Shown one piece after another: positions 27,823 through 43,679 of a DNA stretch of 48,502 bases (positions within the stretch are counted from its first letter, which is position 1; each line of letters starts with the position of its first letter). A program made the translations under genes and the position numbers. Source of the DNA: Clostridiales bacterium (lineage in GTDB: Bacteria; Bacillota; Clostridia; Lachnospirales; WQUN01). Location: contig JAITDJ010000092.1 of assembly GCA_031282635.1 (NCBI GenBank), positions 1 through 48,502 of the forward strand. Reading direction: 5' to 3'. Below the pieces are notes generated by a model, which was given only the letters and a program-made list of their open reading frames with translations, made no database searches and was not told the origin of the DNA.

Positions 27823-27851
27823 TTGACATACGTCAGGTGAATAATATATAC
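27823..27851 (+). promoter_or_regulatory. Sigma-A-type promoter of first ABC importer operon
   Basis: TTGACA (27823-27828), 16-17 nt spacer, TATATA/ATATAC. Confidence 0.5.
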
Positions 27852-27884
27852 TAATAATAAATAGTGAATAAAGGGGTGATTGTT

Positions 27885-28829
27885 TTGAAGAGAGCTGATA
27901 CAATCCGCTCTCCTGTTCAGCGTTTGCTGCGTAATATTCGGGCTTATCGGGCGTTGCTGCTTATGTTGCTGCCGGGCGTCGTCGTTTTTTTTCTATTCAA
28001 TTATCTGCCAATGTTCGGCGTGATAATCGCTTTTAAAAAAATCGATTATTCTCTGGGCATTTTACGCAGCCCTTTCGTATGGCTTGACAACTTCCGTTTT
28101 CTCTTTGCGACCTCCGACGCATGGCGTATAACCCGCAACACACTTATATATAATTTGGTTTTTATTGCCTGTGATGTTTTTTTAGCTGTTGGAATAGCTG
28201 TTTTAATGCGGGAAATATGGCGTCCGGCAGCGTCTAAACTATATCAAACCATAATAATTATGCCCTATTTCCTATCAATGGTAGTGGTGGCGTATCTGGC
28301 CTACGGCTTTCTGAACCCCGATTACGGATACTTCAACAAGCTGCTGGAATCGTTGGGGTTAAACAAAATACAGTGGTATTATGAGCCGAAATATTGGCCG
28401 TTCATTCTGCCGTTTATCCATTTTTGGAAATCGCTGGGGTATCGATCGGTGGTGTATCTTGCGGCCATAGCCGGGCTCGACAAGGAATTATACGAAGCCG
28501 CCGTGATAGACGGCGCCGGTAAATGGGCCCAAATGACCCGGATTACCCTGCCGCAGCTCATCCCTACAATGGTAGTCATGTTCCTTTTGGCGCTGGGTAA
28601 TATATTCCGCGCCGATTTCGGCCTGTTTTATCAAGTAACTATGAATTCGGCCATGCTTTATAATGTTACCGATGTAATTGACACATATGTGTACCGCGCG
28701 TTAATCCAGATGAACAACATCGGGATGTCGTCCGCGGCAAGCGTGTATCAGTCTGTTGTCGGCGCCATTACCGTAATATGCGCGAATCTGATTGTCCGCA
28801 AGCTGGATTCGTCACAGGCCTTGTTTTAG
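27885..28829 (+). CDS. Carbohydrate ABC transporter permease (LplB-like)
   Basis: 'FNYLPMFGVIIAFK', EAA-like 'LYEAAVIDGAGKWAQMTRITLP'. TTG 27885 lies 8 nt after AAGGGG; the ORF is open from GTG 27864. Confidence 0.85.
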   Translation: MKRADTIRSPVQRLLRNIRAYRALLLMLLPGVVVFFLFNYLPMFGVIIAFKKIDYSLGILRSPFVWLDNFRFLFATSDAWRITRNTLIYNLVFIACDVFLAVGIAVLMREIWRPAASKLYQTIIIMPYFLSMVVVAYLAYGFLNPDYGYFNKLLESLGLNKIQWYYEPKYWPFILPFIHFWKSLGYRSVVYLAAIAGLDKELYEAAVIDGAGKWAQMTRITLPQLIPTMVVMFLLALGNIFRADFGLFYQVTMNSAMLYNVTDVIDTYVYRALIQMNNIGMSSAASVYQSVVGAITVICANLIVRKLDSSQALF

Positions 28830-28839
28830 GGGGGTACGT

Positions 28840-29787
28840 ATGAGTCGAAACAGTGAAGCCGCTGTACAAGCGGCGTCTAAGGATTTGCGGAACCGTGCGC
28901 CTTGGTACGTGAATGTTATTCTTCATATTGTGTTCTCTATATTCGCGTTCCTGTGCCTTGCGCCTCTGTTACTGCTGGTTATGGTTTCCTTAACGCCCGA
29001 GACGGTTTTATTACGGAACGGATACAGTTTTTTTCCGGAAACGTTCACACTGGAGGCTTATCGGTTTTTATTCCAGAAAGCCGGCATGGTTTTTAACGCG
29101 TACGGAGTCACGATTTTCATCGTTATACTGGGCACGGCGTCCTCTTTATTGATCACCGCGCTTTACGCGTACCCTATCTCAAGGCTGGACTTTCCGTTCG
29201 CCAGGTTTTTTTCGCTGTTCATCGTTATAACGCTGCTGTTCAGCGGCGGTCTGACCGCCAGCTATCTGATCAACGTCAGAGCGCTGGGGCTGCGCAACTC
29301 AATATGGGCTCTTATTTTACCCGGTCTGGCAAACGCGTTTCATATTATTATCGCGCGTACGTTTTTCCGGCTCAGTATTCCGACTTCTCTGATGGAATCC
29401 GCCCGCATTGACGGCGCCGGAGAGTGGCGTATCCTATTTCGTATTGTGCTTCCGCTGTCTCTGCCGCTGCTGGCCACGTTAGGGCTGTTCTGTACCTTCA
29501 GTTTTTGGAACGATTGGTTCAGGGCGCTTCTTTATATTGAAAACAGACAGCTTTATCCTTTGCAGTACGTTATGATGCGCGCGCTTATGAATTTGCAGGA
29601 ACTCCAGAAGAATATCGCCTCCGGCGCTATGAATTCCGAAGAAGCCATGAAAATACTGGCTGAAATGCCTTCGGAAACGCTGCGCATGGCAATGGCGATT
29701 GTGGCTATAGGGCCGATTATTGCGGTTTATCCGTTCTTCCAGCGTTACTTTATCAGCGGATTGACGGTCGGCGCTGTAAAAGGCTGA
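28840..29787 (+). CDS. Carbohydrate ABC transporter permease (LplC-like)
   Basis: 'ESARIDGAGEWRILFRIVLPLS' EAA loop, six TM segments. ATG 28840 follows a G-rich RBS. Confidence 0.85.
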   Translation: MSRNSEAAVQAASKDLRNRAPWYVNVILHIVFSIFAFLCLAPLLLLVMVSLTPETVLLRNGYSFFPETFTLEAYRFLFQKAGMVFNAYGVTIFIVILGTASSLLITALYAYPISRLDFPFARFFSLFIVITLLFSGGLTASYLINVRALGLRNSIWALILPGLANAFHIIIARTFFRLSIPTSLMESARIDGAGEWRILFRIVLPLSLPLLATLGLFCTFSFWNDWFRALLYIENRQLYPLQYVMMRALMNLQELQKNIASGAMNSEEAMKILAEMPSETLRMAMAIVAIGPIIAVYPFFQRYFISGLTVGAVKG

Positions 29788-29839
29788 TTTCAACTTTATT
29801 TGGTATTTATTTAACTTTAATTTAAGGGAGACATTATTT

Positions 29840-31414
29840 ATGAAAAGATGGTTAGCTCTTGGTTTAGCGGTTTTATTGTCGGCCGGCTGTACGTCGTCCG
29901 CCAACTCCGGAGGCTCGTCCGCGAGCGCGCCCGCGGCGACGGGCGGCGCCGATATTCAGACGGATGAAATTCAGACGGATGAAACCGGACTTAAACCCGT
30001 GGACTTAGTGTATTATATACGCGCCGCTGAACAGGATAATGCCGCTCCGGTGCAAGCCGCCATGGACGTTTATTTTAAAGAAAAGCTCAACTGCACCGTT
30101 AAAATCATTCCCATTAACGAATGGGCCACTAAGATGCCGCTGGTTTTATCTTCCGGCGAGCAAGTGGATTTAACCTTCGATCAGGCCAATACCGGATATT
30201 ATACGAATGTGTCCAACAATATGTATCTGCCGCTGGACGACCTGTTGAATCAATACGGCCAGGGTATCTTGGAACAGATAAACGTGAACTGTCCCGGCCT
30301 TATTGACGCGCCTAAGGTAAACGGGGTTCTTTATGGAATACCCTGTGAAAAGCAGACCGCGCAGTGTGAGGCGTGGTATTTCAGAAAAGATATTGCCGAC
30401 GAGATTGGCCTGGATGCGGACAAGCTGGTCAGCTTGCAGGATCTTGAGCCTTTCCTGGCTAAAATTAAAGAGACGCGCCCTGAAATGACGCCCTATTATG
30501 TGTCGGCAGGCACGGGCGTCAATCAGGAATGGATTACGGACGCCATTCGGGATAACCCGGAAAAATACGAGGAGCTTAATGGCGCCGTAAACTTGCTGAT
30601 AGTGGATTTGGAATCTGATACAGTGCTGAATCACTATGAGACCGAGTGGGATGTTGACCGATACCAGACGCTGAAATCCTGGCAGGATAAGGGTTATATC
30701 AATACAGACGCCGCGACAACCACCACAGCCGCCGCCGATATATTCCGCGCGGGCAAAACATGGTTTGTAGGCGGCGGCGGCGCTCCTACCACTATGAGTT
30801 CATACGAAACCGGTTATGGCACAATGTTCTATCGCTGGCGCTCGACAGGTCCTATTGTAAACACATATCAGAATACGACGGCTTTAACATGCGTCACGCG
30901 CACCACCGCAGACGCCGAACGCGCGATGATGGTTTTGAACCTGTTCCATACGGATCCTGTTATCGTCAATCTTTTTAATTCCGGGATAGAAGGCGTGAAT
31001 TACGTTATTGACGAGAACGGTCGTTTCGCGCTTCCTGAAGGCGCGGCGTCACGCGCCGATACAGGGTATAACTATGGTTTTGATACGTTCTTTGGCAATA
31101 TGTTCTTAAACTCGCTTTGGAATACCGACAAAGAGGACAGGTATGACGAGCTGCGCGGTTATAACCAGTCCGCCAGGCAGAGCAAAATAATGGGTTTTTA
31201 TGTGGATATGTCCGCTATAGTAAATGAATACGCCGCCGTCGAGGCCGTGCGCACGCAGTATGCCCCATTGCTGAAGGCCGGCGTTGTATCTGATGTTCAA
31301 GCCGCCTTAAAGGAAATGAATGATAAGATGTACGCCAACGGGCTGCAGAAGATTATAGACGAAGCACAGAGGCAATACGACGCTTTCGTTGCGGCCGGGG
31401 GTAAGAAATCATAG
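29840..31414 (+). CDS. Extracellular solute-binding lipoprotein (LplA-like, ~520 aa)
   Basis: Lipobox 'LLSAGC'. Size and position downstream of the LplB/C-like permeases. Confidence 0.8.
   Translation: MKRWLALGLAVLLSAGCTSSANSGGSSASAPAATGGADIQTDEIQTDETGLKPVDLVYYIRAAEQDNAAPVQAAMDVYFKEKLNCTVKIIPINEWATKMPLVLSSGEQVDLTFDQANTGYYTNVSNNMYLPLDDLLNQYGQGILEQINVNCPGLIDAPKVNGVLYGIPCEKQTAQCEAWYFRKDIADEIGLDADKLVSLQDLEPFLAKIKETRPEMTPYYVSAGTGVNQEWITDAIRDNPEKYEELNGAVNLLIVDLESDTVLNHYETEWDVDRYQTLKSWQDKGYINTDAATTTTAAADIFRAGKTWFVGGGGAPTTMSSYETGYGTMFYRWRSTGPIVNTYQNTTALTCVTRTTADAERAMMVLNLFHTDPVIVNLFNSGIEGVNYVIDENGRFALPEGAASRADTGYNYGFDTFFGNMFLNSLWNTDKEDRYDELRGYNQSARQSKIMGFYVDMSAIVNEYAAVEAVRTQYAPLLKAGVVSDVQAALKEMNDKMYANGLQKIIDEAQRQYDAFVAAGGKKS
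29954..29983 (+). repeat. Perfect 2 x 15-bp in-frame tandem duplication (attcagacggatgaa; IQTDE IQTDE)
   Basis: Read directly; lies in the linker after the lipobox of the binding protein. Confidence 0.9.
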
Positions 31415-31539: not shown

Positions 31540-31968
31540 GCCCATTTGCCCCCATAAGGGGGAATTATGGGGCTTTCCGTCCGGACGCGCAAGCAGGCCG
31601 CGCCGACGGAGAGATTCCGCGCCGGTTAAACGAGTGAGAGCGATAAGGTCAAGGGGGCTGAACTGTGGACGGAGACAATTTTTTGTAAAAGTCTTCTGAA
31701 GATAAAATAATTTAATAAATATTTCTTGACATGAGGGGTTTATGATGATAGCATTGTATAAAACAACTATGGTTTATGCTCGGCAGCGTTTAAATTTCTA
31801 TATTTTTATAGCTATATGAGTCATTAATATCAAAGATAGAAAAATTGTAAACAGCCCCGATAAAAATCCCGAACAGAATATAGGACATTGTGGCTTATGC
31901 TGCGCCGCGCCTCTATTGTTCGTAAAACCTGTATTGAACGAATAATTATATGGTAGTATTCGTATAAT

Positions 31969-32010: not shown

Positions 32011-32087
32011 ATTTTATTATTAAATTAAGATATTAAAATATATGAAATTAAAAAAAACCTTACTAAGAAGGTTTGGGGGGGGCGTTT

Positions 32088-33044
32088 ATGGATGGGTTGT
32101 TGAGTAACGTGTCCAGCCGGAAGAAATGGCGTTTCGGATCGGACAATACAGAGCTGGCCTTGCTTGGCTTGCCGGTTGTAGCGTGGTTTGCGCTATTTTC
32201 ATATTTGCCTATGTTTGGCGTAATCATCGCGTTTAAACGCTATCGCCCGCTGGGCGCTAACTTTTTAGACAGCCTGCTTAAGAGCGAGTGGATGGGTTTT
32301 GATAACTTCAAATTCCTTTTCAAAACGCCGGACGCATTTTTGATCATCCGTAACACAATCATGTATAATCTGGCGTTTATTGTCACAAGCATTCTGATAT
32401 CCGTCACGCTTGCCGTAATGATCTCTCAGCTTCATTCCGCTAAATTTGCCAAAACCTGCCAAACCATGATGTTCCTGCCTCATTTTCTCTCCTGGGTGGT
32501 TGTGGGCTATTTTGTGTTCGCTTTCCTCAGCGCCGATAAGGGGCTTGTGAACCAGATCCTTAAGAGCGCAGGAAAAAAGCCTGTTCAATGGTATACGCAA
32601 GCGCAGTATTGGCCGGGGTTGCTTATACTTGTCAATACTTGGAAAAAGATGGGTTACTCAATGGTGGTTTACCTCGCCAGTATCGCGGGTATTGACGCAA
32701 GCCTTTATGAGGCGGCGGCTATTGACGGCGGAACCAAGTGGCAGCAGATTCGTCATATCACGCTTCCTCTGCTGACGCCTATCATAACGATTATGTTTAT
32801 TATGGCGGTGGGGCAGATATTCACTTCGGATTTTGGTTTGTTTTACAACGTGCCCAGGCGCTCCGGGACGCTCTATAATTTAACCCAAACAATAGACCTC
32901 TACGTTTACAATGCGCTGACGCAGCGCAATAACATCGGCTTCGCCTCCGCCGCCAGCGTTACCCAGTCTGTGGTGGGTTTGATCACGATTGTCAGCGCCA
33001 ACCAGTTGGTACGAAAATTGGCGCCTGAAAATTCTCTGTTCTAG
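32088..33044 (+). CDS. Carbohydrate ABC transporter permease (LplB-like, paralogue 2)
   Basis: 'FSYLPMFGVIIAFK', 'LYEAAAIDGGTKWQQIRHITLP'. ATG 32088 lies 5 nt after a G8 tract; the ORF is open from TTG 32073. Confidence 0.85.
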   Translation: MDGLLSNVSSRKKWRFGSDNTELALLGLPVVAWFALFSYLPMFGVIIAFKRYRPLGANFLDSLLKSEWMGFDNFKFLFKTPDAFLIIRNTIMYNLAFIVTSILISVTLAVMISQLHSAKFAKTCQTMMFLPHFLSWVVVGYFVFAFLSADKGLVNQILKSAGKKPVQWYTQAQYWPGLLILVNTWKKMGYSMVVYLASIAGIDASLYEAAAIDGGTKWQQIRHITLPLLTPIITIMFIMAVGQIFTSDFGLFYNVPRRSGTLYNLTQTIDLYVYNALTQRNNIGFASAASVTQSVVGLITIVSANQLVRKLAPENSLF

Positions 33045-33063
33045 ACAAGAAGGGAGTAACCAT

Positions 33064-34017
33064 ATGGACAATCAAGGAACTGTCCGGGTATTTAAAGACG
33101 ACGGAGATTCATGCGGTATGAATCGTTTCAACAGGATCTCCGTCCCCGCGAACACGGCCTTCTCAATTTTATTCATCCTGCTTGCCCTGATTTGCGTTAT
33201 CCCCTTGGTGTTTGTCGTTATAATCTCTTTATCTTCTGACGCGTCAATCCAGAAGGCAGGGTATACTTTTATGCCTATTGAGTGGACGACGGGGGCTTAT
33301 TTATATCTCATTCATACGGGGAATACGGTAAGCCAGGCTTTTTTAGTTTCCATCGGCGTTACGCTGACAGGCACCGTTATAGGTCTGCTGCTTAACTCCT
33401 CCATGGGGTATGTGCTGTCACGTCCCTCGTTTAAGCTTAAAAAGCTCTATACTATGATTATTTTTATTCCTATGTTGTTTTCAGGCGGCATGGTGGCGTC
33501 GTATATGGTAAACTCTCAACTGCTGGGGCTGTTAAACAGTTATGGCGCGCTGATTCTTCCCATTGCGGTCACACCGTTTTACATCATAATTCTGCGTACT
33601 TTTTTTCAAACCACCGTGCCTGATTCCGTCGTTGAATCTGCTAAGATAGACGGCGCCTCCCAGCTGCTGACGTTTTTTCGCATTGTGATGCCCATCTCAA
33701 AGCCGGCGCTGGCCACTATCGGGCTGTTTCTCTCTTTTGCCTATTGGAATGATTGGTTCCAGGCCCTGCTCTACATCAAGTCGGATCACAGCTATATGTA
33801 TCCGTTGCAGTATGTGTTGATCGGCATTGAACGCAACATTGATTTTCTTGTGCGCAATACACAGTATTTCAGCGCATCCATGTCGGGCGGGCGCATACCC
33901 ACCGAATCGGCGCGCATGGCTCTGGTTGTAATCGCCGTCCTGCCTATTGCCTGCTCCTATCCGTTTTTCCAGAAATATTTTATTTCTGGCCTGACGATAG
34001 GCGCGGTAAAGGGATGA
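33064..34017 (+). CDS. Carbohydrate ABC transporter permease (LplC-like, paralogue 2)
   Basis: 'ESAKIDGASQLLTFFRIVMPIS'. ATG 33064 follows the RBS aagggag. Confidence 0.85.
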   Translation: MDNQGTVRVFKDDGDSCGMNRFNRISVPANTAFSILFILLALICVIPLVFVVIISLSSDASIQKAGYTFMPIEWTTGAYLYLIHTGNTVSQAFLVSIGVTLTGTVIGLLLNSSMGYVLSRPSFKLKKLYTMIIFIPMLFSGGMVASYMVNSQLLGLLNSYGALILPIAVTPFYIIILRTFFQTTVPDSVVESAKIDGASQLLTFFRIVMPISKPALATIGLFLSFAYWNDWFQALLYIKSDHSYMYPLQYVLIGIERNIDFLVRNTQYFSASMSGGRIPTESARMALVVIAVLPIACSYPFFQKYFISGLTIGAVKG

Positions 34018-34136
34018 AGCCTCGGCGTTACGATATAAGCGTCAATAATGTCTCTCTTGTGACGCGCTCCGCGGCGTAAACGGAACGAAAATTCGTTCGC
34101 GCCGTCAGATTTATAAAAAGATGGAGGTACAAACCA

Positions 34137-35720
34137 GTGGTAAAAGGAACAAGTAACAAGGGCGCCATTTTGCTCGCGGCGCTGTTGAGTTTGGCCATGC
34201 TTCTCTCGGCGTGTTCCGGAGGCGGTACGCAGACGTCCGCTACCCAGCCGGCAGACAGCGCCGCGACTCAGGCTCAAACAAGCGAAAGCGCGGCGCCGGC
34301 TCAAACAGATGAGGGCGCGGCGGGTGACGTAACAGAATTGATTTGGCTTATGGGCGACCCCGGCACAATCCCGGCCGATCAGGCCAGAGTGGAAGAAGAG
34401 CTGAATAAAATCAGCGAGGAGAAGCTGGGCGTCAGAATGAAAACTATTTACTACAAGGACGAATCTGTCAAGCTGGCCCTTTCGGCGGGGGAAGAATGGG
34501 ATATAGCTTTCACCTGCGAATGGTACAACAATTACGCTGTCCAGGCGGCGGCCGGTTACTTCGCTGATCTGACAGAGAAGATCAAGACTGTAACCCCGGA
34601 TCTCTATGCTACCATGCCCGATGTTGTGTGGGAAGGGGCCAAAGTGAGCGGTAAGATCTTCGCGATACCCGTAAAGAAAGACTACGCCGCTGAGATGTTC
34701 GCCATTTTTGATAAGGCTCTTTACGAGGATTTGGGTATGGAGATTACCCCTACAATGGATTGGTACGATCTGGATAAGTATCTGAAAGCGGCCAAGGAAG
34801 CGTTCGAAGCGGGCAATCCCCTCGCTAAGGGGGAATATCCGGCGGGCAGCACCTACAAAGCCGGTTTCGAGGGCCCTTTCAGGGATTATGACATGATAAA
34901 CCGCGATATTATGATTGGCATACCTTACTCGGCCGTGGGCACGCCCGATGAAAACAAAGTAATATTCGTTCCCACTGATCCAGTGGCTTTTGATATGTTG
35001 AAAGTGGTGCACAGATGGTTTGAGGAGGGCTATATACCTCCGGACGCCATGACTTTGGAAAGCGTTCCGCCCACTACATGGTACGCCGTATCATGCGGAC
35101 AGGGATTCTATGGCGCGGACGCAATCTGGAGCGGCGGCGTGGGGTATCCGGTCGAAATATCCCGCTTCAGCGGTCCGTATCTGTCTACAGCCAGTATACG
35201 CGGAGCTATGAACGCTATAAACGCCAAGTCTAAAAACATTGATCTGGCGCTGAAGTATCAGGAATTGGTCAATACGGATCAAACATACCGGGATATTCTC
35301 CGTTACGGCATTGAAGGCACGCATTGGAACAAAACTGCCGAAGGATTGGCTCAACGCACCGATGAGGGCCGCTCCGGTTATCAGCCGTGGCCGTTCTCCC
35401 AGGGTTCTTACTCTTTGTCAACGGTCGAAGCGGCGGAAGGGGTTAGTGTGGATCCCGATATGTGGAACGTCATATTCGACGGATATAAAGATGCGGTAGC
35501 CACTAATTCGATAGGATTCTCTTTTGACCCAGTCAACGTGGAGACAGAGCTTGCCGCCTGTGCGGCCACCTATAAGAAATATCTGGATGGGCTGGTGACG
35601 GGCACAACGGATCCCGAAACGGAAGTGCCCAGACTGTTAGATGAAATGAACGCTTCCGGCCTGGAAAAGGTTATTGCCGAATGCCAGGCGCAGTTGGACG
35701 CCTTCGTGGCGAATAAATAA
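34137..35720 (+). CDS. Extracellular solute-binding lipoprotein (LplA-like, paralogue 2)
   Basis: Lipobox 'LLSAC'. GTG start after GGAGG. ~527 aa. Confidence 0.8.
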   Translation: MVKGTSNKGAILLAALLSLAMLLSACSGGGTQTSATQPADSAATQAQTSESAAPAQTDEGAAGDVTELIWLMGDPGTIPADQARVEEELNKISEEKLGVRMKTIYYKDESVKLALSAGEEWDIAFTCEWYNNYAVQAAAGYFADLTEKIKTVTPDLYATMPDVVWEGAKVSGKIFAIPVKKDYAAEMFAIFDKALYEDLGMEITPTMDWYDLDKYLKAAKEAFEAGNPLAKGEYPAGSTYKAGFEGPFRDYDMINRDIMIGIPYSAVGTPDENKVIFVPTDPVAFDMLKVVHRWFEEGYIPPDAMTLESVPPTTWYAVSCGQGFYGADAIWSGGVGYPVEISRFSGPYLSTASIRGAMNAINAKSKNIDLALKYQELVNTDQTYRDILRYGIEGTHWNKTAEGLAQRTDEGRSGYQPWPFSQGSYSLSTVEAAEGVSVDPDMWNVIFDGYKDAVATNSIGFSFDPVNVETELAACAATYKKYLDGLVTGTTDPETEVPRLLDEMNASGLEKVIAECQAQLDAFVANK

Positions 35721-35833: not shown

Positions 35834-37090
35834 ATGGCGGAGCAACAGAAGAAATACGATCTTCTGATCGCGAACGGTCAGGTAATAGATCCGGCCAACG
35901 GGTTGAACGCCCGGCTGGATGTGGCGGTAAATGAAGGCGTTATCGTGACAGTGGCGCGCGGGATACCAAAAGAGGACGCGAAAATCGTTATCGACGTGAA
36001 GGGCAGTTATGTAACCCCCGGGCTTATTGACATTCACACGCATGTATATCCTTTGCTTCCATCGCCGAGCAGGCTTTACGCCATAGAACCCGACTCCCAC
36101 ATGCTGAGATCCGGCGTTACGACGGCAGTTGACGTGGGAACCGCGGGCTGGCGGGATTTTTTGGATTTCAAAGAATCAATCATCGACACGTCCCAGGTCA
36201 GGGTGTTAGCCATGCTCAACGTGGCTGCGGGCGGCATGGTGAGGATGATTTCGGAGCAGACGCCCTCCGATATGCACCCTGAGATTACCGCAGCGGTCGC
36301 GAAACAATACCCTGATATTATCGTAGGCGTTAAAGCCGCGCATTATTGGGCAGGCAAACCCTTTGACGACATACACGTCCCCTGGGCCTCGGTGGACAGC
36401 GGGCTTAAAGCGGCGGGGCTGGCCGATCTGCCTTTTATGATAGATTTTTGCCCTAACTACGAGTCTCCGGGGCGTTCTTATGAAGAGCTGGTTCTGGAGA
36501 AGCTGAGGCCCGGCGATATACATACGCATGTATTCGCCAAGCAATTCCCCATTGTGGATGATAACGGAAAAGTATTGCCGCACATGCGGAAAGCGCGCGA
36601 GCGCGGCGTATATTTTGACGTGGGGCACGGTGCGGGCAGTTTCTGGTTCCGCAACGGCAAGCGCGCGTTGGACGACGGTTTCGCGCCGGACACGCTCTCC
36701 ACGGATATGCACTATGCCAGCGTGAAGCCCGCGGGGCTGGATCAACTTCTGCTGATGTCGAAGTTCATGAATATGGGCATGTCTTTGGAAGACGTTATTA
36801 AGCGCTCTACCAGCGAGCCTGCCAAATTGATCCGCAGGCCCGATCTGGGTACGCTTTCTGTGGGCGCGTGCGCGGATATTGCGGTGCTGCGCGCGCTTTC
36901 GGGCGATTTTGGTTATGTGGACTGCGGAGGGGCGAGGCTTCAGGGCGACAGCCGTCTCGATTGTCAGCTTACAATCCGTGAGGGTAATGTGGCGTACGAC
37001 ACGAATGGTCTTTCTATGCCGGATTGGCGGGAAGCGCCGGAGGAGTACTGGAAAATGCCCTTCCTGCCCGGACCCGGGCAAAAAGCGTGA
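35834..37090 (+). CDS. Amidohydrolase-superfamily metallohydrolase (deacylase/dihydroorotase-like)
   Basis: 'GLIDIHTHVY' HxH metal motif, later 'GDIHTHVF' and 'YFDVGHG', C-terminal 'GACADIAVL'. Confidence 0.8.
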   Translation: MAEQQKKYDLLIANGQVIDPANGLNARLDVAVNEGVIVTVARGIPKEDAKIVIDVKGSYVTPGLIDIHTHVYPLLPSPSRLYAIEPDSHMLRSGVTTAVDVGTAGWRDFLDFKESIIDTSQVRVLAMLNVAAGGMVRMISEQTPSDMHPEITAAVAKQYPDIIVGVKAAHYWAGKPFDDIHVPWASVDSGLKAAGLADLPFMIDFCPNYESPGRSYEELVLEKLRPGDIHTHVFAKQFPIVDDNGKVLPHMRKARERGVYFDVGHGAGSFWFRNGKRALDDGFAPDTLSTDMHYASVKPAGLDQLLLMSKFMNMGMSLEDVIKRSTSEPAKLIRRPDLGTLSVGACADIAVLRALSGDFGYVDCGGARLQGDSRLDCQLTIREGNVAYDTNGLSMPDWREAPEEYWKMPFLPGPGQKA

Positions 37091-37108
37091 TATGGAGGTT
37101 GCACGACT

Positions 37109-38227
37109 ATGAGTATTTATGATAAACTTGGGGTGAAGCGGTATATAAACGCGGCTGCGACGCTTACACGTTACGGGGGTTCCATAATGCCGGAGGAAGT
37201 GCTGCGCGCTATGAGCGAAGCCGCCGGCAGCTATGTGGATATCCTGGAACTGCATAAGAAAGCCGGGGACTATATAGCGAAGCTGACGCGCAACGAAGCC
37301 GCTTTTGTGCCGAACGGCGCGGCGACGGGCATTATGCTGGCCACGGCGGCGTGCGTGGCGGGCGATGATATGGAGAAACGGCAGAAGCTTCCGTTTTCCG
37401 ACGGTATGAAAAATGAGATTATTCTGTCGCAGGCTGGGAGGGTCGCGTATGATTACGCTATTAAGATGGGCGGCGGCAGATATGTGCCATACGGCGACGA
37501 AAACAGCGGTACAATCGAGCAGATTGAAGCCGCGATCACTCCGAATACCGCGGCGATTTTTGTGTTCTATTTCGAGCACCGCATGGGGAATCAGCCTGAT
37601 CTTGAAGCCCAGATAAAAATCGCGAAGAAACACGGTATATATCTATTCGTGGACGCGGCGGCGCAGCTTCCGAGGCGTGAGAACCTCTGGCGATTCACGC
37701 AAGCCGGCGCGGATTTGGCGATATTCAGCGGAGGCAAGGGGCTTCGGGGCCCGCAGGCCAGCGGGCTGATAGTGGGCCGCAAGGATCTGATGGATCGGAT
37801 TTTGACGATTGCCAGCCCGAACGGGGGGATCGGCCGCCCCATGAAAGTGGGCAAGGAAGAGATTGTCGGGCTTATGACGGCGGTAAAACTCTATATGGAG
37901 CATGATGAGGAAGCTGAGCTGGCAGATTATGAGCGGCAGGTTAAACAGGTTATAGAGGCTTTTGCCGGAGACGGCGGCGTGGAGGTTACGCGTTCATTCC
38001 CCAGCGAGGCGGGGCAGCCAATGCCGCGCGCGCAAATAAAGCTGTCGCGTGACGCCTTTAAAATTGAAGCGCAAAAGTTGGCTGAACAGCTGAGAGACGG
38101 AGAGCCCGGTGTACTTGTCTCAGGGCATGGGGATATTATGGAAATCAACCCGCAGACACTGCTGGACGGTGAAATGGGCATTGTGATCGACAGGCTTAAA
38201 CAGGTTTTAAACGCGAACCGCGTATAA
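37109..38227 (+). CDS. SelA-like PLP-dependent enzyme (DgaE / amino-sugar-acid ammonia-lyase-like)
   Basis: 'GVKRYINAAATLTRYGGS' and 'DLAIFSGGKGLRGPQASGLIVGRKDL', with the Lys in the SelA-type PLP context. Confidence 0.7.
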   Translation: MSIYDKLGVKRYINAAATLTRYGGSIMPEEVLRAMSEAAGSYVDILELHKKAGDYIAKLTRNEAAFVPNGAATGIMLATAACVAGDDMEKRQKLPFSDGMKNEIILSQAGRVAYDYAIKMGGGRYVPYGDENSGTIEQIEAAITPNTAAIFVFYFEHRMGNQPDLEAQIKIAKKHGIYLFVDAAAQLPRRENLWRFTQAGADLAIFSGGKGLRGPQASGLIVGRKDLMDRILTIASPNGGIGRPMKVGKEEIVGLMTAVKLYMEHDEEAELADYERQVKQVIEAFAGDGGVEVTRSFPSEAGQPMPRAQIKLSRDAFKIEAQKLAEQLRDGEPGVLVSGHGDIMEINPQTLLDGEMGIVIDRLKQVLNANRV

Positions 38228-38257: not shown

Positions 38258-38722
38258 ATGTATACGGAAAAATTGCTGGAGGAGATAGGGATCGACCTGG
38301 CGCCTGTATGCCGTCATGGTAAGTCTGTGGTACCTATCAGGCGCTATAAGGATCTCTTATTTATATCCGGGCATGGGCCGGTAGACGCCGATGGCAGGCC
38401 GCTTACGCAGGGCATTGTCGGGGTGGATCTGACGCAGGAGCAGGGCTTTGAGGCCGCGCGGCTCTGCGCGGTCAGTATGCTGCGCACGCTGAAGGACTAT
38501 TTAGGCGATTTAGACCGCATCGTGGAATGGGTAAAAGTTTTGGGGCTTGTTAATTCCGGCGGCGATTTCTGGGGAATGCCGGCGACTGTTAACGGCTTTT
38601 CTAATGTTATAGTTACGGTTTTCGGTGAGCGCGGCCGCCACGCGCGAGCGGCCATGGGATCGGCAAACCATGAGTCGGGATATCCGGTCGTCATTGACGC
38701 GATTGTGCGGATCCGCGACTAG
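38258..38722 (+). CDS. RidA/YjgF/UK114-family protein, paralogue 1
   Basis: 'LLFISGHGP...GIVGVDLTQEQGFEAARL...FGERGRHARAAMG...IDAIVRI'. Confidence 0.8.
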   Translation: MYTEKLLEEIGIDLAPVCRHGKSVVPIRRYKDLLFISGHGPVDADGRPLTQGIVGVDLTQEQGFEAARLCAVSMLRTLKDYLGDLDRIVEWVKVLGLVNSGGDFWGMPATVNGFSNVIVTVFGERGRHARAAMGSANHESGYPVVIDAIVRIRD

Positions 38723-38735
38723 AAGGATGGCGATT

Positions 38736-39488
38736 ATGCGCTATAGCAAGCTGTTAGAGGGAAAATCCGCATGGATAACCGGGGGGAGCGCGCCGCCGTT
38801 CGACGCTTACGCGCTTCTCTTCACAAAGCACGGCGCGAGGGTTACGGTTTTGGATTGTGAAAAAGGCTGCGATCTTACAGAGCCGGACGCCGCGGGAGCG
38901 GCTTGCGAGGCGCTGCTGAGCGAATCCGGCCCTCCGGACATCTGGCTTCATATAGCGGATGTGTATGATACGGCCTATATTGACGAACTAAGTATGGAAA
39001 CACTGGAAAAAATGTTAGCGGTCAGCGTTCTTACGCCGTTTCGGATTATGAAGTCGATAGCTGTTCCAATGCGAGAGAACGGCGGTGGATCCGTGGTATT
39101 TGTCAGCGGCGAGTACGGCGTGCAGGCCATGAACCGCGTATCGGCGTACGGCGCGGCTAAGGGCGGCGAAATCGCTATGGCCAACGCGTTTGCCGTGGAA
39201 TACGCGGCGGATGGCATACGCGTGAATACGCTTGTGCCAGGCGTGAGTTTTTCACCGGTGGGCGACGATATACTGCTGCAGTCGGGCGAAAGCGATACGC
39301 CGGATTTTTGGGGTTGTGTACAACCGTTCCGAAGGCGGGGCGATATGTCCGAACTGGCGAACGCGGCGCTGTTCCTGGCTTCGGATATGTCAGACTATAT
39401 TACCGGCGAGGCGCTGTATATAAATGGGGCTGAACATTTGATCGCGCATAACCACGGTTTTCCGCGAAAGGACAAGGTGATGCCGTGA
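38736..39488 (+). CDS. SDR-family protein A (S-Y-K present, glycine-rich cofactor motif degenerate)
   Basis: 'AWITGGSAPPFDAYA' replaces TGxxxGxG. 'VFVSGEYG...SAYGAAKGG...GIRVNTLVPG' is retained. ATG 38736 follows the RBS gaagga. Confidence 0.75.
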   Translation: MRYSKLLEGKSAWITGGSAPPFDAYALLFTKHGARVTVLDCEKGCDLTEPDAAGAACEALLSESGPPDIWLHIADVYDTAYIDELSMETLEKMLAVSVLTPFRIMKSIAVPMRENGGGSVVFVSGEYGVQAMNRVSAYGAAKGGEIAMANAFAVEYAADGIRVNTLVPGVSFSPVGDDILLQSGESDTPDFWGCVQPFRRRGDMSELANAALFLASDMSDYITGEALYINGAEHLIAHNHGFPRKDKVMP

Positions 39489-40243
39489 GCGGGGAAAAAT
39501 GGCTGGAGGGTAAAACCGCGGTCATTACCGACGCGAACCAGGCTGTGGGCCGGGCTGTCGCCAGGCTGTTCGCGGCGCACGGCGCGGCGCTGGCTTTAGG
39601 CGCGGGCGATTTGACCCAAGGCGAAGAACTGCTCGCCGAACTCGATGTTTCGAATAGTTTTGTTTATTATTGTGATCTTTCGGATGCGGGGTCGGTTGAA
39701 GGATTCTGTACGGAAGTAAACCGCCGCTGGCAGTTGGTAAACATATTGGTGAACAACCCATGGACAGAAGAGAGCGGCGCGTTTGAAACCGCAGAGGATA
39801 GGGATGACAGCCGGATCCTGCAGATCTATCAGCACAGTCTTGTGCAAACGATGAGGGCGTTTTGGCCGAGGATGATTAAAGCGGGGTCCTGTTCTGTAAT
39901 ACAGATCTCGTCCTGTCTGGTCGTCAAGCCAACGCCCGGTTCGCTCGCCCGCGCGATAGGCTATGGGGCGCATGGGGGGTTGACTCGGGTTCCCGCCGTG
40001 GAAGGCGGTATCCATGAGGTGCGCGTGAACGAAATTTACGCCGCTTATGGCGTGAATACGGAAAAGCGGGCGTACGCGCCGCTAAAGGTTTCGGGCGTGG
40101 AACGTGACGGACGGGCGGATGTTGCCGGCGCGGCGAAAGCCGCCTTGTTTTTGGCCAGCGATATGGCGTCGTATATTTCCGGCGCGTCCATTTCCGTAAC
40201 CGGAGGCGTGCGCGCTGAGCGTCTTGCGGCCGTTGTGACGTGA
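39485..40243 (+). CDS. SDR-like protein B (catalytic Lys absent)
   Basis: 'AVITDANQAVGRAVARLFAAHGA'. 'YGAHG' replaces YxxxK. C-terminal 'ALFLASDMASYISGASISVTGG'. GTGA overlap with the upstream stop. Confidence 0.7.
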   Translation: MSGEKWLEGKTAVITDANQAVGRAVARLFAAHGAALALGAGDLTQGEELLAELDVSNSFVYYCDLSDAGSVEGFCTEVNRRWQLVNILVNNPWTEESGAFETAEDRDDSRILQIYQHSLVQTMRAFWPRMIKAGSCSVIQISSCLVVKPTPGSLARAIGYGAHGGLTRVPAVEGGIHEVRVNEIYAAYGVNTEKRAYAPLKVSGVERDGRADVAGAAKAALFLASDMASYISGASISVTGGVRAERLAAVVT

Positions 40244-40276
40244 GACGTTAATATGATGAAAGGATTGTGAGCGCGG

Positions 40277-40756
40277 ATGGGTGGTAGCCTATTAGAATTG
40301 TTAAACTCCGAGATCTGTGAGTTTAAAATACCTTTTGTTGACTATAGAAACCGATCGTTGGTCGGCATACGCGAAGCGGACGGGCTGGTGTTTGTTTCCG
40401 GCACGGCCTGCGAGGATCACCTGAAGGGCGGCCCGATTTGGACGGGCGCCGTAGGTAAGGATCTGTCTCTTGAGGAAGGTTATAAGGCGGCGCGTTGGTG
40501 CGGCCTGATTCAACTTAACATGCTCAACAATACGTACGGCCTTGACAGGATCGAGCAGATTGTGCGTTCATTCGGATTAATACAGGCGGCGGATGATTTT
40601 TACGATTTGGACGCCATATACGACGGCTATTCGGATGTGATGTACGCCGCTCTGCGCGATCGCGGCAGACATGTACGTACCGTTATGGGCACGCGAAACC
40701 TGCCCAATCATCATGTTACTATCGAGGTGGAGACAATCGCGAAACTTCGCGGCTGA
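40277..40756 (+). CDS. RidA/YjgF/UK114-family protein, paralogue 2
   Basis: 'LVFVSGTA...GAVGKDLSLEEGYKAARW...LRDRGRHVRTVMG...VETIAKL'. Confidence 0.8.
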   Translation: MGGSLLELLNSEICEFKIPFVDYRNRSLVGIREADGLVFVSGTACEDHLKGGPIWTGAVGKDLSLEEGYKAARWCGLIQLNMLNNTYGLDRIEQIVRSFGLIQAADDFYDLDAIYDGYSDVMYAALRDRGRHVRTVMGTRNLPNHHVTIEVETIAKLRG

Positions 40757-40771
40757 GGAGGCGGCAGGGCC

Positions 40772-41494
40772 TTGAAATACGCACGAATGTTAGAAGGCCG
40801 GCACGCCTTGGTTCTTGGCGGCGCGTCGCGGATAGGGCGCGCTGTCGCGCTTCTCTTCGCGGAGCATGGCGCGGAAGTAACCGCGGCGGACGAAGTCAGC
40901 GGCGAAACAGAACGAATATTCAACGAGATGGCCGGGGCATCGCCCGATATTAAGCTGTTTACCTTGGACTTTACGTCGGAGTGTATAAAAAGGATTCGAG
41001 ATTCAGCCCTGACGGAGTTCCCGCGCGCCGATATATTGGTAAGCGCCGCAGATTTGTACAAGACAGGCGAAACCCATAATTTCTGTCTGAAGGATTTTCG
41101 ACGGATGTTGGATGTTAATTTTATTCGCGCTGTCCGGTGTTTTCAGGCGTTATTGCCCGGCATGCTGGAAAACCGCCGCGGCGAACTGATATTGATCGCG
41201 CCCGATCTTACTGATTCCGCCCTGCCGGGAACCGCCGCGGCGGCGGCCTGCGCCGGGGCGATGGCGGCGTTCGCGAGGAATGTCACAATGGATTACATCC
41301 GCTATCATGTGCGCGCGAATACAATCTTGTACCCGTTCATACCCGGACGCGAACCGCTTACGGGCGCGCCTGAGCCGTTGGACGCCGCGAACGCGGCGTT
41401 GTGGTACGCCTGTGACCTTTCACGTTTTGTCATCGGGGAATCACTCAGCGTAAACGGTGGCGTGAGCTATTTTGAGGAGGCGCCTTCATCATGA
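40772..41494 (+). CDS. SDR-like protein C (cofactor motif intact, Ser/Tyr/Lys all absent)
   Basis: 'ALVLGGASRIGRAVALLFAEHGAEV'. The catalytic segment reads 'IAPDLTDSALPGTAAAAACAGAMAAFARNVTMDY'. The TTG start gives MKYARMLEGR, parallel to the other three SDR N-termini. Confidence 0.7.
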   Translation: MKYARMLEGRHALVLGGASRIGRAVALLFAEHGAEVTAADEVSGETERIFNEMAGASPDIKLFTLDFTSECIKRIRDSALTEFPRADILVSAADLYKTGETHNFCLKDFRRMLDVNFIRAVRCFQALLPGMLENRRGELILIAPDLTDSALPGTAAAAACAGAMAAFARNVTMDYIRYHVRANTILYPFIPGREPLTGAPEPLDAANAALWYACDLSRFVIGESLSVNGGVSYFEEAPSS

Positions 41495-42363
41495 ATTACG
41501 ACAGATTACTGGAAGGCAAATTCGCGGTCGTGACCTCCGGCGCGCACGGGATGGGAAAATATATAGCTAAAGTGATGATACGTCACGGCGCGGCGTGCGC
41601 GATCAATGGCATGAATCCCGAAGGTGAAAAGACTGCCGAGGAATTTCGGAAAAACGCTCCGGCCTCGTTTTTCATACAATGCGACATGTCGCTGAGTGAA
41701 GACCGTCGGAGGTTTATACAAGAAGTATCGAAGCGCGTCGATCATGTGGACATCCTGGTTAATACCGTAGGGATCAACCGCAGCGATTTCAGCGGGGAAG
41801 TGGACGACGAACGTTTTGAATATACACAACAGGTGAACCTTCACGGGGCTATCTGGATGACGCGCGGGTTTCTGCCGCTTATGAAAAAGACGGGCGGAGT
41901 GGTGACGCATATATCAACCATACATTCGGTACTTGGAATGCCGCCTAATACGGCATACGCCTCGTCGAAATCCGCGATAAACGCTTTTTCCCGCGCGTTG
42001 GCCGTTGAATATGCCTCATATGGCATACGTTCCAATGTTATAAACCCAGGCGGGATATTTACGGGTAAAACGGATGAGATACTGGCCGGAATCGCGAATA
42101 GCAGAGAAGAACTGGCCGCATGGGGGCGGCGGGGCGATTTAGGCCAGCCGGATTACGGCTCAGGCAGCGCCTATGACATCGCGAATACAGCGCTGTTTCT
42201 TTCGTCCGATATGGCGCGTCATATAACAGGCGCGGTTATAAACGTGGACGGCGGCGTGGTCAATCAGGCGCATAGATTCTATGAGCGGAAGCTCCCGCCC
42301 GATCACGATGAAATGTTCTATCAGGTGATAAAAAATCGTTTCACCCCTGTGGAGGATCTATAA
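41491..42363 (+). CDS. SDR-family oxidoreductase D (both motifs intact) with ~40-aa C-terminal extension
   Basis: 'AVVTSGAHGMGKYI', 'ISTIHS...TAYASSKSAINAFSRALAVEY...GIRSNVINPG'. ATGA overlap with the upstream stop. Confidence 0.8.
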   Translation: MNYDRLLEGKFAVVTSGAHGMGKYIAKVMIRHGAACAINGMNPEGEKTAEEFRKNAPASFFIQCDMSLSEDRRRFIQEVSKRVDHVDILVNTVGINRSDFSGEVDDERFEYTQQVNLHGAIWMTRGFLPLMKKTGGVVTHISTIHSVLGMPPNTAYASSKSAINAFSRALAVEYASYGIRSNVINPGGIFTGKTDEILAGIANSREELAAWGRRGDLGQPDYGSGSAYDIANTALFLSSDMARHITGAVINVDGGVVNQAHRFYERKLPPDHDEMFYQVIKNRFTPVEDL

Positions 42364-42391
42364 GCATTGTTTGCCGAAAGGAATGATATAA

Positions 42392-42862
42392 ATGAGTGTG
42401 GAACTGAATAGGCTGAAAGAACAGGAATTGTCGCTGCCGCCGATCAGGCTGACAAATAACGGAGTCGCAGAGTACAAGAAGGTAGGGGATCTAGTTTTTA
42501 TCAGCGGGTTAGGGCCGCTGAACGACGAAGGCAAACTCGCCTATACCGGCCGCGTCGGCGCGGAATATACAGTGGAAGAGGGTTACAAGGCGGCGCGGCT
42601 TGCGGGTCTGAACGTGCTGCAGCGCATCAAAGACGCGGCGGGCGGTCTTGACCGCGTGGATTTTGTTGTGAAATCTGTTGTCTGCGTGAGCGCGCCTCAG
42701 GGCTTCGGAGATATTTACAAAGTGGCGGACGGGTTTTCGGATGTACTGACAGAGGTTTTAGGCGAACGCGGGCTGCATGCGCGCAACGCGGTGGGGGCTT
42801 CAACGCTGAATGGCAACGCCCCGGTAATCTGCGACGCGATTGTTAAACTCCGCGATATTTAG
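42392..42862 (+). CDS. RidA/YjgF/UK114-family protein, paralogue 3
   Basis: 'LVFISGLGP...GRVGAEYTVEEGYKAARL...LGERGLHARNAVG...CDAIVKL'. Confidence 0.8.
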   Translation: MSVELNRLKEQELSLPPIRLTNNGVAEYKKVGDLVFISGLGPLNDEGKLAYTGRVGAEYTVEEGYKAARLAGLNVLQRIKDAAGGLDRVDFVVKSVVCVSAPQGFGDIYKVADGFSDVLTEVLGERGLHARNAVGASTLNGNAPVICDAIVKLRDI

Positions 42863-42932: not shown

Positions 42933-43646
42933 TTACAACGGAAAACGGTCTTTCCATTGCTCCAAAGCCTGAATATAGCGGCGGGTAATCTCCATTGGGC
43001 GAGTAATCGCGCTGCCTACGACAGCGGCCCATACGCCCGCTTCGAAAACATTAACCAGTTGTTCCGGCGTCCAGATGCCTCCTTCCGCTATCACAGGCAA
43101 ATCAAGACGAGAAACTAACGTCCGGATAAAATCTAAATCCGGCAATTTTATTCCTTGCGTTTCTTCGGTGTACCCACGTAAAGTAGAGCCTATGCAATCG
43201 AACCCCAATTCCCTTGCGCGCAGCGCGTCCTCAAGAGTGGCGCAATCCGCCATAAAAACAATGCGCGGATATTTTTTCCGGAGCGGCGCAAAAAAACGCT
43301 CCAGCGTAACGCCGCCTGGACGCGCGCGATTCGTCGCGTCGGCAGCGATTATATCAGCCCCTATTTCCACAAGGGCGTCCGCTTCTTTCATTGTGGGGGT
43401 AATGTATACGGCGCTGTCGGAGGAAACACTTTTGATAATTCCAATTACAGGCAGGGCCACTTCCCGCTGAATGGCGCGGATGTCATCGACAGTATTGGCG
43501 CGAATACCCACAGCGCCCCCATGCATGGCAGCACTTGCCATTTTCGCCATAATACTGGAACTGTATAACGGTTCTTCCGGCAAGGCCTGGCAGGATACAA
43601 CGAGCCCTCCCCTGATCTTATTTAACGGATTATTATGCCCTATCAT
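42933..43646 (-). CDS. nanE: N-acetylmannosamine-6-phosphate 2-epimerase
   Basis: 'GGLVVSCQALPEEPLYSS', 'GAVGIRAN', 'VIAEGGIWTPEQ'. ATG 43646 lies 9 nt after GAGGTG; the ORF is open from GTG 43658. Confidence 0.85.
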   Translation of the reverse strand: MIGHNNPLNKIRGGLVVSCQALPEEPLYSSSIMAKMASAAMHGGAVGIRANTVDDIRAIQREVALPVIGIIKSVSSDSAVYITPTMKEADALVEIGADIIAADATNRARPGGVTLERFFAPLRKKYPRIVFMADCATLEDALRARELGFDCIGSTLRGYTEETQGIKLPDLDFIRTLVSRLDLPVIAEGGIWTPEQLVNVFEAGVWAAVVGSAITRPMEITRRYIQALEQWKDRFPL

Positions 43647-43679
43647 ATACAGTATCACCTCGGCTCAACGATTATGCCG

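Follow-up and report, generated by a model that had tools for sequence, protein, structure and literature searches.

An interleaved block of three Rid1 and four short-chain dehydrogenase genes in Clostridia, with a proposed role in amino-sugar-acid catabolism

Introduction

Why should three genes of one small protein family be threaded at regular intervals through four genes of another? The question is raised by a contig of a Clostridiales bacterium (JAITDJ010000092.1, assembly GCA_031282635.1), the whole of which, 48.5 kb (48,502 nucleotides), was analysed and is called the window here. At positions 38258-42862 the window carries the series Rid1-SDR-SDR-Rid1-SDR-SDR-Rid1 (SDR, short-chain dehydrogenase/reductase), directly 3' of genes for a cog3964 amidohydrolase (AH) and a DgaE-like pyridoxal-phosphate (PLP) ammonia-lyase. 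The result is a run of nine close-packed genes on the + strand at 35.8-42.9 kb, in the order AH-PLP-R1-S1-S2-R2-S3-S4-R3. A first-pass annotation of the sequence had described seven alternating same-strand open reading frames (ORFs) in a 1-2-1-2-1 pattern and had suggested that they encode a Rid heterotrimer and an SDR heterotetramer; the seven ORFs are present on the + strand at the positions it gave, and their families are assigned by Pfam.

The reading favoured here, to which we would give an even chance when all of its steps and heteromers are included, is that the array makes up the downstream half of a conserved operon that would break down an N-acylated 2-amino-2-deoxy sugar acid (for example N-acetylhexosaminate) or a closely related beta-hydroxy-alpha-amino acid. 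Comparative evidence, together with the loss of catalytic residues, lends support to the idea that hetero-oligomers act on what the upstream PLP enzyme produces. Across many genomes the block links Rid1 proteins with a single, specific PLP lyase and a single amidohydrolase family, which gives a concrete, testable substrate hypothesis for a group of proteins (the Rid1-3 subfamilies) whose in vivo substrates are not known (PMC4433059).

The genes of the array

The nine genes are listed below with the evidence for each assignment (aa, amino acids).

35834-37090, + strand: AH, a cog3964 / PRK09237 amidohydrolase-deacetylase metallohydrolase, proposed deacylase (NCBIfam NF006689)
37109-38227, + strand: PLP, a DgaE-family (SelA-related) pyridoxal-phosphate ammonia-lyase, proposed enamine/imine source (TIGR01437, 7lc0)
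38258-38722, + strand: R1, Rid1 subfamily, 154 aa (PF14588, E 4e-12, 46.6 bits)
38736-39488, + strand: S1, SDR paralogue, 250 aa (Pfam adh_short / adh_short_C2, motif tables)
39485-40243, + strand: S2, pseudo-SDR, 252 aa (Pfam adh_short / adh_short_C2, motif tables)
40277-40756, + strand: R2, Rid1 subfamily, 159 aa (PF14588, E 1e-8, 35.2 bits; AlphaFold2 and Foldseek)
40772-41494, + strand: S3, pseudo-SDR, 240 aa from a TTG start (Pfam adh_short / adh_short_C2, motif tables)
41491-42363, + strand: S4, conserved SDR, predicted to be active, 290 aa (Pfam, E 6e-49)
42392-42862, + strand: R3, Rid1 subfamily, 156 aa (PF14588, E 2e-19, 70.4 bits)

The small ORFs had been proposed to adopt the YjgF fold, and the predictions agree. 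All three pass the PF14588 (YjgF_endoribonc) cut-off of 35 bits; R2, the weakest call and barely above that threshold, was the one Rid protein to be modelled. Its AlphaFold2 model (predicted local distance difference test score, pLDDT, 91; predicted template-modelling score, pTM, 0.86) matches the solved structures of the Rid1 proteins ACIAD3089, PA0814, 3d01 and 2otm in Foldseek with template-modelling (TM) scores of 0.75-0.93. The same four proteins are the solved-structure matches of the Rid sequences, R3 matching 3d01 and 2otm at E ~4e-19 and PA0814 at 1e-16. (In CDD the Rid1 subfamily is named YjgF_YER057c_UK114_like_1.) The four SDRs are matched by adh_short / adh_short_C2 in Pfam with E-values from 1e-24 to 6e-49, and the common LEGK start that had been noticed in them is seen as xYxxLLEGK/R. 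The paralogues are well separated from one another: R1 and R3, judged by eye to be about 35-40% identical, are 39% identical when computed, R1/R2 and R2/R3 are at 36% and 34%, and the SDR pairs are at 25-32%. When clustered at 90% identity the window's proteins are singletons.

Conservation and gene-order variants

Is the pattern peculiar to this contig? A search with S2 among 5.8 billion proteins found only about 20 orthologue clusters, with a sharp drop below them to generic SDRs, and a search with S3 found about 27. Loci (given L numbers here) were drawn from the genome context of S2 hits, from a pattern scan of 185,579 species-representative genomes, and from a metagenome scan. The species-representative scan gave 11 loci, all of them in Clostridia metagenome-assembled genomes, or MAGs (Oscillospiraceae, Caldicoprobacterales, Defluviitaleaceae and unclassified); the metagenome scan gave 17, which appear from their contig names to come mostly from termite guts and digesters. 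Gene content, orthology, the loss or retention of motifs, order variants, fusions and neighbours can be read directly from these loci. Clean 1:1 orthologues of all seven proteins are present in about 20 distinct loci of uncultured Clostridia, and on every contig of sufficient length. The orthologues are 71-88% (R1), 59-86% (R2) and 61-73% (R3) identical for the Rid proteins and 50-77% (S4), 38-62% (S1), 39-60% (S2) and 44-62% (S3) identical for the SDRs, while every cross-paralogue comparison falls at 21-41%. Recent duplication or an assembly artefact was rejected on this comparison (21-41% among paralogues against 38-88% among cross-genome orthologues), and the earlier view of an old, maintained architecture is borne out by it and by the 1:1 orthology. 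Since the nine-gene block recurs with such orthology in many independent MAGs, the pattern is not due to chance; nor is it strain-specific, because the same block, with the array beside the SelA-like gene, is found in other genomes.

The order of the genes is less constrained than their content. Most loci, complete or as consistent fragments, have the interleaved order AH-PLP-R1-S1-S2-R2-S3-S4-R3, and one clade (L009, L015, L016 and L017) has the blocked order AH-PLP-R1-R2-R3-S1-S2-S3-S4. A third order is found in a distant lineage (L041, GCA_023398815.1, the same locus as L038 and L039), with R1 at 57%, R3 at 51% and R2 at 42% identity. Here the series runs ROK, lactonase, an S4-like SDR fused to a SelA-like PLP protein, R1-type, a different amidohydrolase, SDR, SDR, S4-like SDR, and then a second PLP gene, R3-type and R2-type, so that the total is again three Rid1 and four SDR domains. 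The fusion (L041:1749-3779) is a protein of 676 aa with a canonical S4-like SDR domain and a SelA/DgaE-like PLP domain, encoded right after the lactonase and ROK-family genes. Reduced versions also occur: L013 has the Rid trio followed by only two SDRs, and a pair of R1-like and R2-like genes lies beside the same amidohydrolase family in a Limiplasma-type gut contig, in the cultured termite spirochaete Breznakiella homolactica and in L040.

Loci of the blocked order form a single clade in a neighbour-joining, midpoint-rooted tree built on R1, R2 and R3 in concatenation; interleaved loci occur on either side of its root, and loci that have no quartet are scattered. The interleaved order is thus probably ancestral, with one rearrangement without loss, and the quartet has probably been lost or moved several times. 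Two parts of the first-pass annotation do not survive these comparisons. The interleaved order is not essential, and a strict 1-2-1-2-1 periodicity cannot be required, as the blocked and third orders keep the same parts. Likewise the idea that the copy numbers three and four mirror a trimer and a tetramer does not hold, since some loci have the trio with two SDRs or no quartet at all, and others have an R1/R2 pair in its stead.

Beyond the L013 block, at L013:12830-16798, lie genes for a xylose-isomerase-like TIM-barrel protein, a glycyl-radical enzyme like pyruvate formate-lyase and its radical S-adenosylmethionine activase; upstream of it are genes for a BadF-type ATPase, two SIS-domain proteins and a DUF4838 protein.

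The Rid1 trio

Each Rid orthogroup bears its own near-invariant signature (that of R2 includes SGTACED and HVRTVMGTRNLPNH), and R1 is the most conserved protein of the block, with 60% of its positions at least 90% conserved, compared with 33% for S4. The equivalent of RidA Arg105 is kept in all three, in the motifs HARAAMG (R1), HVRTVMG (R2) and HARNAVG (R3), and is conserved across the orthologue alignments. This arginine is the accepted predictor of imine deaminase activity (PMC4433059, PMC5619798), and the Rid1 proteins PA0814 and ACIAD3089 deaminate 2-aminoacrylate and imines derived from amino acids in vitro and complement a ridA mutant (PMC5619798).

Whatever the gene-order class, the trio accompanies the PLP gene; it is co-inherited 1:1:1 in every trio locus and contiguous in the blocked forms. 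Even in two-gene versions, R1-type and R2-type genes travel together. In profile-profile comparison (hhalign) R1 and R3 are the closest Rid pair (251, against 166 and 170 for the others), and the R1-like member of the two-gene pairs scores between R1 and R3; together these results fit an earlier state with two genes, one of which gave rise to R1 and R3 by a later duplication.

An R1:R2:R3 heterotrimer is plausible on this comparative evidence, and there are proteins in which three Rid domains are held in one chain. Fused 3x-RidA proteins exist (PMC4433059), and one protein found here (P0209, 555 aa) has three tandem Rid1 domains, all with the arginine, after the apparent C-terminal end of a PLP dehydratase. 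By analogy with these, three non-identical Rid domains can plausibly make one trimer. Another protein (P0235, 343 aa) has two Rid domains, the first of which appears to be without the arginine. Searches of the literature for a Rid heterotrimer, for glucosaminate with Rid, and for PDB entries 8JE0 and 8T7J returned nothing relevant within a scope that excluded most subscription journals. The block is a natural system in which to ask whether Rid trimers can be hetero-oligomeric.

The SDR quartet

The SDRs differ sharply in what they retain, as judged from motif tables of about 20 distinct aligned orthologues per SDR. S4 has the only near-complete Asn-Ser-Tyr-Lys set among the window SDRs: its tetrad is N-T-Y-K in 18 of 18 orthologues, in which the motifs TSGAHGMG, VNLxG, ISTIHS and YASSKSA are near-invariant, and about 30 aa at its C-terminus form a conserved tail. 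Set against the Gly-rich cofactor consensus TGxxxGxG, its TSGAHGMG is acceptable. At the other extreme, S3 is missing the catalytic Tyr and Lys in 19 of 19 orthologues (AAACAGA) and has only a partial Gly motif (LGGASRIG). S2 keeps both Tyr and Lys in a single orthologue out of 22; a conserved Gln replaces its Asn, and its Gly motif, TDANQAVG, is degenerate. In the window's clade S1 has lost the Gly-rich cofactor motif (TGGSAPPF) along with the catalytic Asn and Ser, and has kept Tyr and Lys. The tables rule out the possibility that all four SDRs are active, and S4 looks to be the only conserved and intact member of the quartet, apparently competent for catalysis.

The degenerate SDRs are themselves intact and conserved, and their most conserved blocks are the alphaE/alphaF region and a segment near the C-terminus. 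The alphaE/alphaF helices are the main dimer interface of SDRs. In the two-SDR version of L013, an SDR with a Tyr-to-Phe change overlaps an S4-like canonical SDR by 4 nt, and in the closest relative of the window (L021:737-2129, Ga0123357_10217548) S3 and S4 form one ORF with no stop between them. Judged by length, there are no further fusions among the S3 homologues.

BbsC and BbsD are among the solved-structure matches of S3, and SDR tetramers with inactive subunits are known: BbsCD, petunia benzaldehyde synthase and HSD17B8/CBR4 (PMC13418739 and references in it). The loss of Tyr and Lys from S3, its conservation, and its pairing with S4 match these pseudo-subunit SDRs, which makes an S3/S4 heteromer with S4 as the catalytic subunit very likely by sequence comparison. 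S1 and S2 would make up another pair, in decay towards an exclusively structural role in the clade of the window. The pattern of degeneration favours these two pairs, S3/S4 and S1/S2, at least as much as a tetramer of four different subunits. As a case of pseudo-enzymes the set is a rich one, with one live subunit and up to three dead ones at stages of decay that differ by lineage.

The junctions of the array were also considered. The first-pass annotation had given gaps of 13-33 nt and two 4-nt overlaps, and these were verified: from R1 to R3 the successive gaps are 13, -4 (GTGA, S1/S2), 33, 15 (30 to a downstream ATG), -4 (ATGA, S3/S4) and 28 nt. At each non-overlapping junction the gene has its own Shine-Dalgarno-like sequence; for S3, which starts with TTG at 40772, it is GGAGG, 10 nt upstream, and the orthologues of S3 start MKYAxMLEG. 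Among the seven loci with gene calls, S1/S2 overlap (by 1-4 nt) in six and S3/S4 in four, and the only overlap at a Rid/SDR junction is S2/R2 in L008. Co-translation, which had been proposed for the whole array, therefore stands as coupling of S1 to S2 and of S3 to S4, and not for all seven genes.

The amidohydrolase and the PLP lyase

The two upstream genes point to the chemistry. AH reaches the curated threshold of NF006689 (385.1 bits, with a cut-off of 371, over residues 7-389); its nearest solved structures are 8je0 ('Amidase'), 2ogj and 2ics, and its orthologues in related loci are 56-77% identical. The upstream gene that had been called SelA-like encodes a PLP ammonia-lyase of the DgaE family by homology to 7lc0. 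This structure, D-glucosaminate-6-phosphate ammonia-lyase, is the best solved match over the full length (E 7e-49, residues 2-367), and with it the Schiff-base Lys is aligned (SGGKGL in the window, SGAKAF in 7lc0). Beta-elimination of the DgaE type proceeds via an enamine/imine, followed by hydrolysis to a 2-keto-3-deoxy acid. Because an enamine/imine is precisely the substrate of Rid proteins, the upstream PLP enzyme fits a role for the Rid trio.

The proposed pathway

Taken together, these comparisons suggest the following route, for which we infer the substrate, the order of the steps and every protein-protein contact. In the first step the cog3964 amidohydrolase would strip the acyl group, and in the second the DgaE-like PLP lyase would eliminate the beta-hydroxyl to give an enamine/imine. 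The three Rid1 proteins would then hydrolyse the imine to a 2-keto-3-deoxy acid and ammonia, most likely as one R1:R2:R3 heterotrimer that would have arisen from an older assembly of an R1-type and an R2-type protein. In the fourth step S4 would run a single NAD(P)-dependent redox reaction, which may be either oxidation of the sugar at C1, upstream, or oxidation of the keto-deoxy acid, downstream. S3 would be its non-catalytic partner subunit, as in alpha2beta2 SDRs of the BbsCD type, and S1/S2 would be a second pair, largely or wholly non-catalytic, in the same or a parallel assembly.

The neighbours of the core in other genomes are of the kind that such a route would use. A 7-bladed lactonase and a canonical SDR adjoin the core in L004, L018, L041 and L043, a KDPG-type (2-keto-3-deoxy-6-phosphogluconate-type) aldolase is found in L004, an RraA-like class II aldolase in L043, and a glycoside hydrolase of family GH89 (alpha-N-acetylglucosaminidase) in L040 and L043. 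Other neighbours are ROK or BadF-type kinase-like genes, SIS-domain proteins, GFO/IDH/MocA oxidoreductases, and sugar-type ATP-binding cassette (ABC) or major facilitator superfamily (MFS) importers. From its gene content the Limiplasma-type locus reads as a complete route: release of N-acetylglucosamine, C1 oxidation, lactone hydrolysis, deacetylation, PLP-dependent deamination with Rid, and aldol cleavage. That S4 may be a sugar C1 dehydrogenase is hinted at by L043, where an S4-like SDR adjoins the lactonase, and by the L041 fusion. The block points to an uncharacterised catabolism of amino sugars or amino-sugar acids in Clostridia of termite guts and digesters.

A number of observations weigh against this reading. 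Some concern the enzymes. PLP falls below both of the curated DgaE cut-offs (TIGR01437, 249 versus 385 bits; NF047797, 221 versus 600 bits) and is by these scores a homologue of DgaE and not an equivalog. DgaE itself acts on a 6-phosphate. The window is devoid of a kinase, and its operon has neither a lactonase nor an aldolase. Complementary loss of active-site residues among R1, R2 and R3, of the kind that would make heteromers obligatory, is not seen in the orthologue alignments. S1 has the Tyr in all orthologues and the Lys in most, is fully canonical in several lineages, and may still be active in these. S4 has Thr at the position of the catalytic Ser, which is normal in some extended SDRs. 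The S3-S4 fusion of L021 is present on a single metagenome contig, and may be either natural or a 1-nt assembly error (a frameshift) at the usual ATGA overlap.

Other observations concern the integrity of the block. Four loci have the trio but no quartet nearby, among them L018, L023 and L024, in which the PLP gene is kept too, so that the quartet is separable from Rid function, and L040 has only two Rid genes. The locus L006:1-6291 has S1-S2-R2-S3-S4-R3 followed by a GFO/IDH/MocA oxidoreductase, with AH, PLP and R1 not adjoining; a response-regulator-GGDEF gene holds their place, so these three genes are either elsewhere or absent. In L002, where the interleaved locus is otherwise complete, the usual position of the PLP gene is taken by a gene for a 372-aa protein (L002:5963-7081) that is unlike the window PLP and matches no model in Pfam or NCBIfam.

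Alternative explanations

The most probable of the alternatives, unlikely as we consider it, has no heteromers at all: each Rid1 would form a homotrimer and each SDR a homo-oligomer, they would serve separate intermediates or substrate variants (such as hexosaminate epimers), and the degenerate SDRs would function in binding, isomerisation or regulation. Consistent with this, all the solved Rid1 structures found are single-sequence entries, the presence of the arginine in all three Rid1 proteins means that each could work alone, S1 is canonical in several lineages, and the two PLP paralogues of L041 hint at more than one imine in that lineage. However, the main family has one PLP lyase for three arginine-bearing Rid1 proteins, which would be redundant as separate deaminases if each made its own homotrimer, and R1-type and R2-type proteins always occur together, even as pairs. 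Independent homo-oligomers also sit poorly with S3, which is without Tyr and Lys everywhere yet is conserved and coupled to S4 in the manner of BbsCD and benzaldehyde synthase, and with the location of the conserved blocks of S2 and S3 in the helices that form the dimer interfaces of SDRs.

At the opposite pole, and improbable in our view, is one larger assembly, in which a Rid1 heterotrimer would be docked on a heterotetramer of S1, S2, S3 and S4 that has one active site in all, and possibly joined by the PLP lyase, so as to channel the imine and keto intermediates, the gene order reflecting the order of assembly. The interleaved order on both halves of the Rid tree, the recurrence of three Rid and four SDR in three gene orders, the S4-like SDR-PLP fusion of L041, and the 60% of near-invariant positions in R1 (above expectation for a free-standing small hydrolase) are in keeping with such a complex. 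On the other side, four loci have the trio without the quartet and L013 has two SDRs, the blocked order parts the Rid genes from the SDR genes, and Rid and SDR genes overlap only at S2/R2 of L008; the regular coupling is confined to S1/S2 and S3/S4, which fits two alpha/beta pairs better than an ABCD tetramer. We place similarly little weight on the claim that R1-R2-R3 would be the first obligate heterotrimeric Rid enzyme, derived from an A2B pair, with three non-equivalent sites, in a fixed complex with an SDR tetramer that has a single catalytic subunit, and channelling the imine of the DgaE-like lyase. Were such a complex of heterotrimer and SDRs real, it would provide the first physiological Rid1 substrate and a new oxidative route for N-acetylhexosamine in anaerobic gut Clostridia.

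Very improbable, finally, is that the periodic order merely records how an [R-S-S] or [S-S-R] module was once duplicated in tandem, with no meaning today beyond co-regulation: cross-pair profile scores (S1-S3 299, S2-S4 300) do exceed within-pair ones (S1-S2 266, S3-S4 227) and the xYxxLLEGK N-terminal motif is common to the four SDRs, but R1-R3 as the closest Rid pair fits neither simple module, the top SDR pair is S1-S4 (317), the paralogues (21-41% identical) form lineages each with its own strongly conserved signature, and the order has been kept over deep divergence and rearranged only once without loss of parts. For an origin by tandem [R-S-S] duplication specifically, the profile-profile scores fit no simple module model.

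Comparison with characterised systems

The array combines known kinds of parts, a Rid protein paired with a PLP lyase and SDRs with pseudo-subunits; as the first-pass annotation had suspected, no characterised pathway or system with this gene order or content was found in the literature searched. The nearest in logic is the ong pathway of Pseudoalteromonas, which uses N-acetylglucosaminate from oxidised chitin (GlcNAc1A) by way of the deacetylase OngB, the PLP deaminase OngC, which makes 2-keto-3-deoxygluconate (KDG), OngD and KdgK (PMC9537276); OngD, a RidA-family protein, is essential in vivo, and its role was left open (PMC9537276). As in the proposed pathway, a deacylase of the amidohydrolase superfamily precedes a PLP deaminase that gives a 2-keto-3-deoxy acid, and a Rid protein is encoded in the cluster. 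However, by the published family descriptions OngB is D-aminoacylase-like whereas the window AH belongs to cog3964 / PRK09237, and OngC is a D-amino-acid deaminase whereas the window PLP is of the SelA/DgaE type. Instead of three Rid1 paralogues, the ong cluster has a single RidA-domain protein of 127 aa (OngD); a set of SDRs is absent from ong, and a KDG kinase from the window. The ong pathway is thus an analogue, not a family that contains the window block.

The dga system of Salmonella provides the closest solved relative of the window PLP (DgaE, 7lc0) and shares its presumed chemistry, beta-elimination and deamination of an amino-aldonate, with the aldolase DgaF as a partner. It differs in that the window PLP lies below the curated DgaE cut-offs and import in the window is of the ABC or MFS type, with no phosphotransferase system. 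The dga system is not known to include amidohydrolase, Rid or SDR genes.

The likeness of the SDRs to BbsCD (Thauera aromatica, 7pcs), petunia benzaldehyde synthase and human HSD17B8/CBR4 lies in adjacent paralogues of which one is intact and the other is conserved without its catalytic residues. These enzymes depend on their inactive subunit both to assemble and for the substrate pocket (PMC13418739 and references therein). They have two paralogues, whereas the window has four, no more than one or two of which would be active; a long conserved C-terminal tail is found on the active S4 and on S1 in the window, and on the dead subunit in the known pseudo-subunit SDRs. The sequence similarity to BbsCD is only at the generic SDR level. 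PA0814 and ACIAD3089, in turn, share fold, subfamily and catalytic arginine with the window Rid1 proteins; they are single-gene cases with no known physiological substrate, whereas the window has three diverged, co-inherited genes beside a specific PLP lyase.

Surroundings of the array in the window

An ABC importer lies directly upstream of AH and is probably in the same operon as the array (32073-35720). It consists of:

32073-33044, + strand: permease (Pfam BPD_transp_1)
32989-34017, + strand: permease (Pfam BPD_transp_1)
34137-35720, + strand: solute-binding lipoprotein (DUF3502)

A second, similar set (permease-permease-DUF3502, 27864-31414) precedes this importer, and DUF3502 binding proteins flank the array also in L002, L008 and L009. 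Downstream, a gene for NanE (N-acetylmannosamine-6-phosphate 2-epimerase; 42933-43658, - strand) converges on R3, with about 70 nt between the stop codons, and beyond it lie genes for a GGDEF protein and then tsaD. The remaining genes of the window are housekeeping ones (L21, Obg, LicD-type wall genes, PPK2).

A scan of the window against Rfam gave no match, and a scan of 27-44 kb for promoters and terminators gave counts near the shuffled expectation, with no clear internal terminator. One promoter-like site, with a score of 11 of 12, lies at 27823-27852, and another, with a TG extension, at 31726-31754. An antisense ORF of 475 aa (36206-37633, - strand) runs over AH and PLP; its translation is of low complexity and rich in Arg and His, and the ORF most likely reflects the GC richness of the coding strand rather than a gene. 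About 12 kb upstream of the block, at 22107-23351, the window encodes an aldo/keto reductase fused to a 4Fe-4S ferredoxin domain, and a similar protein is encoded about 4 kb downstream of the block in L002 (L002:17213-18358).

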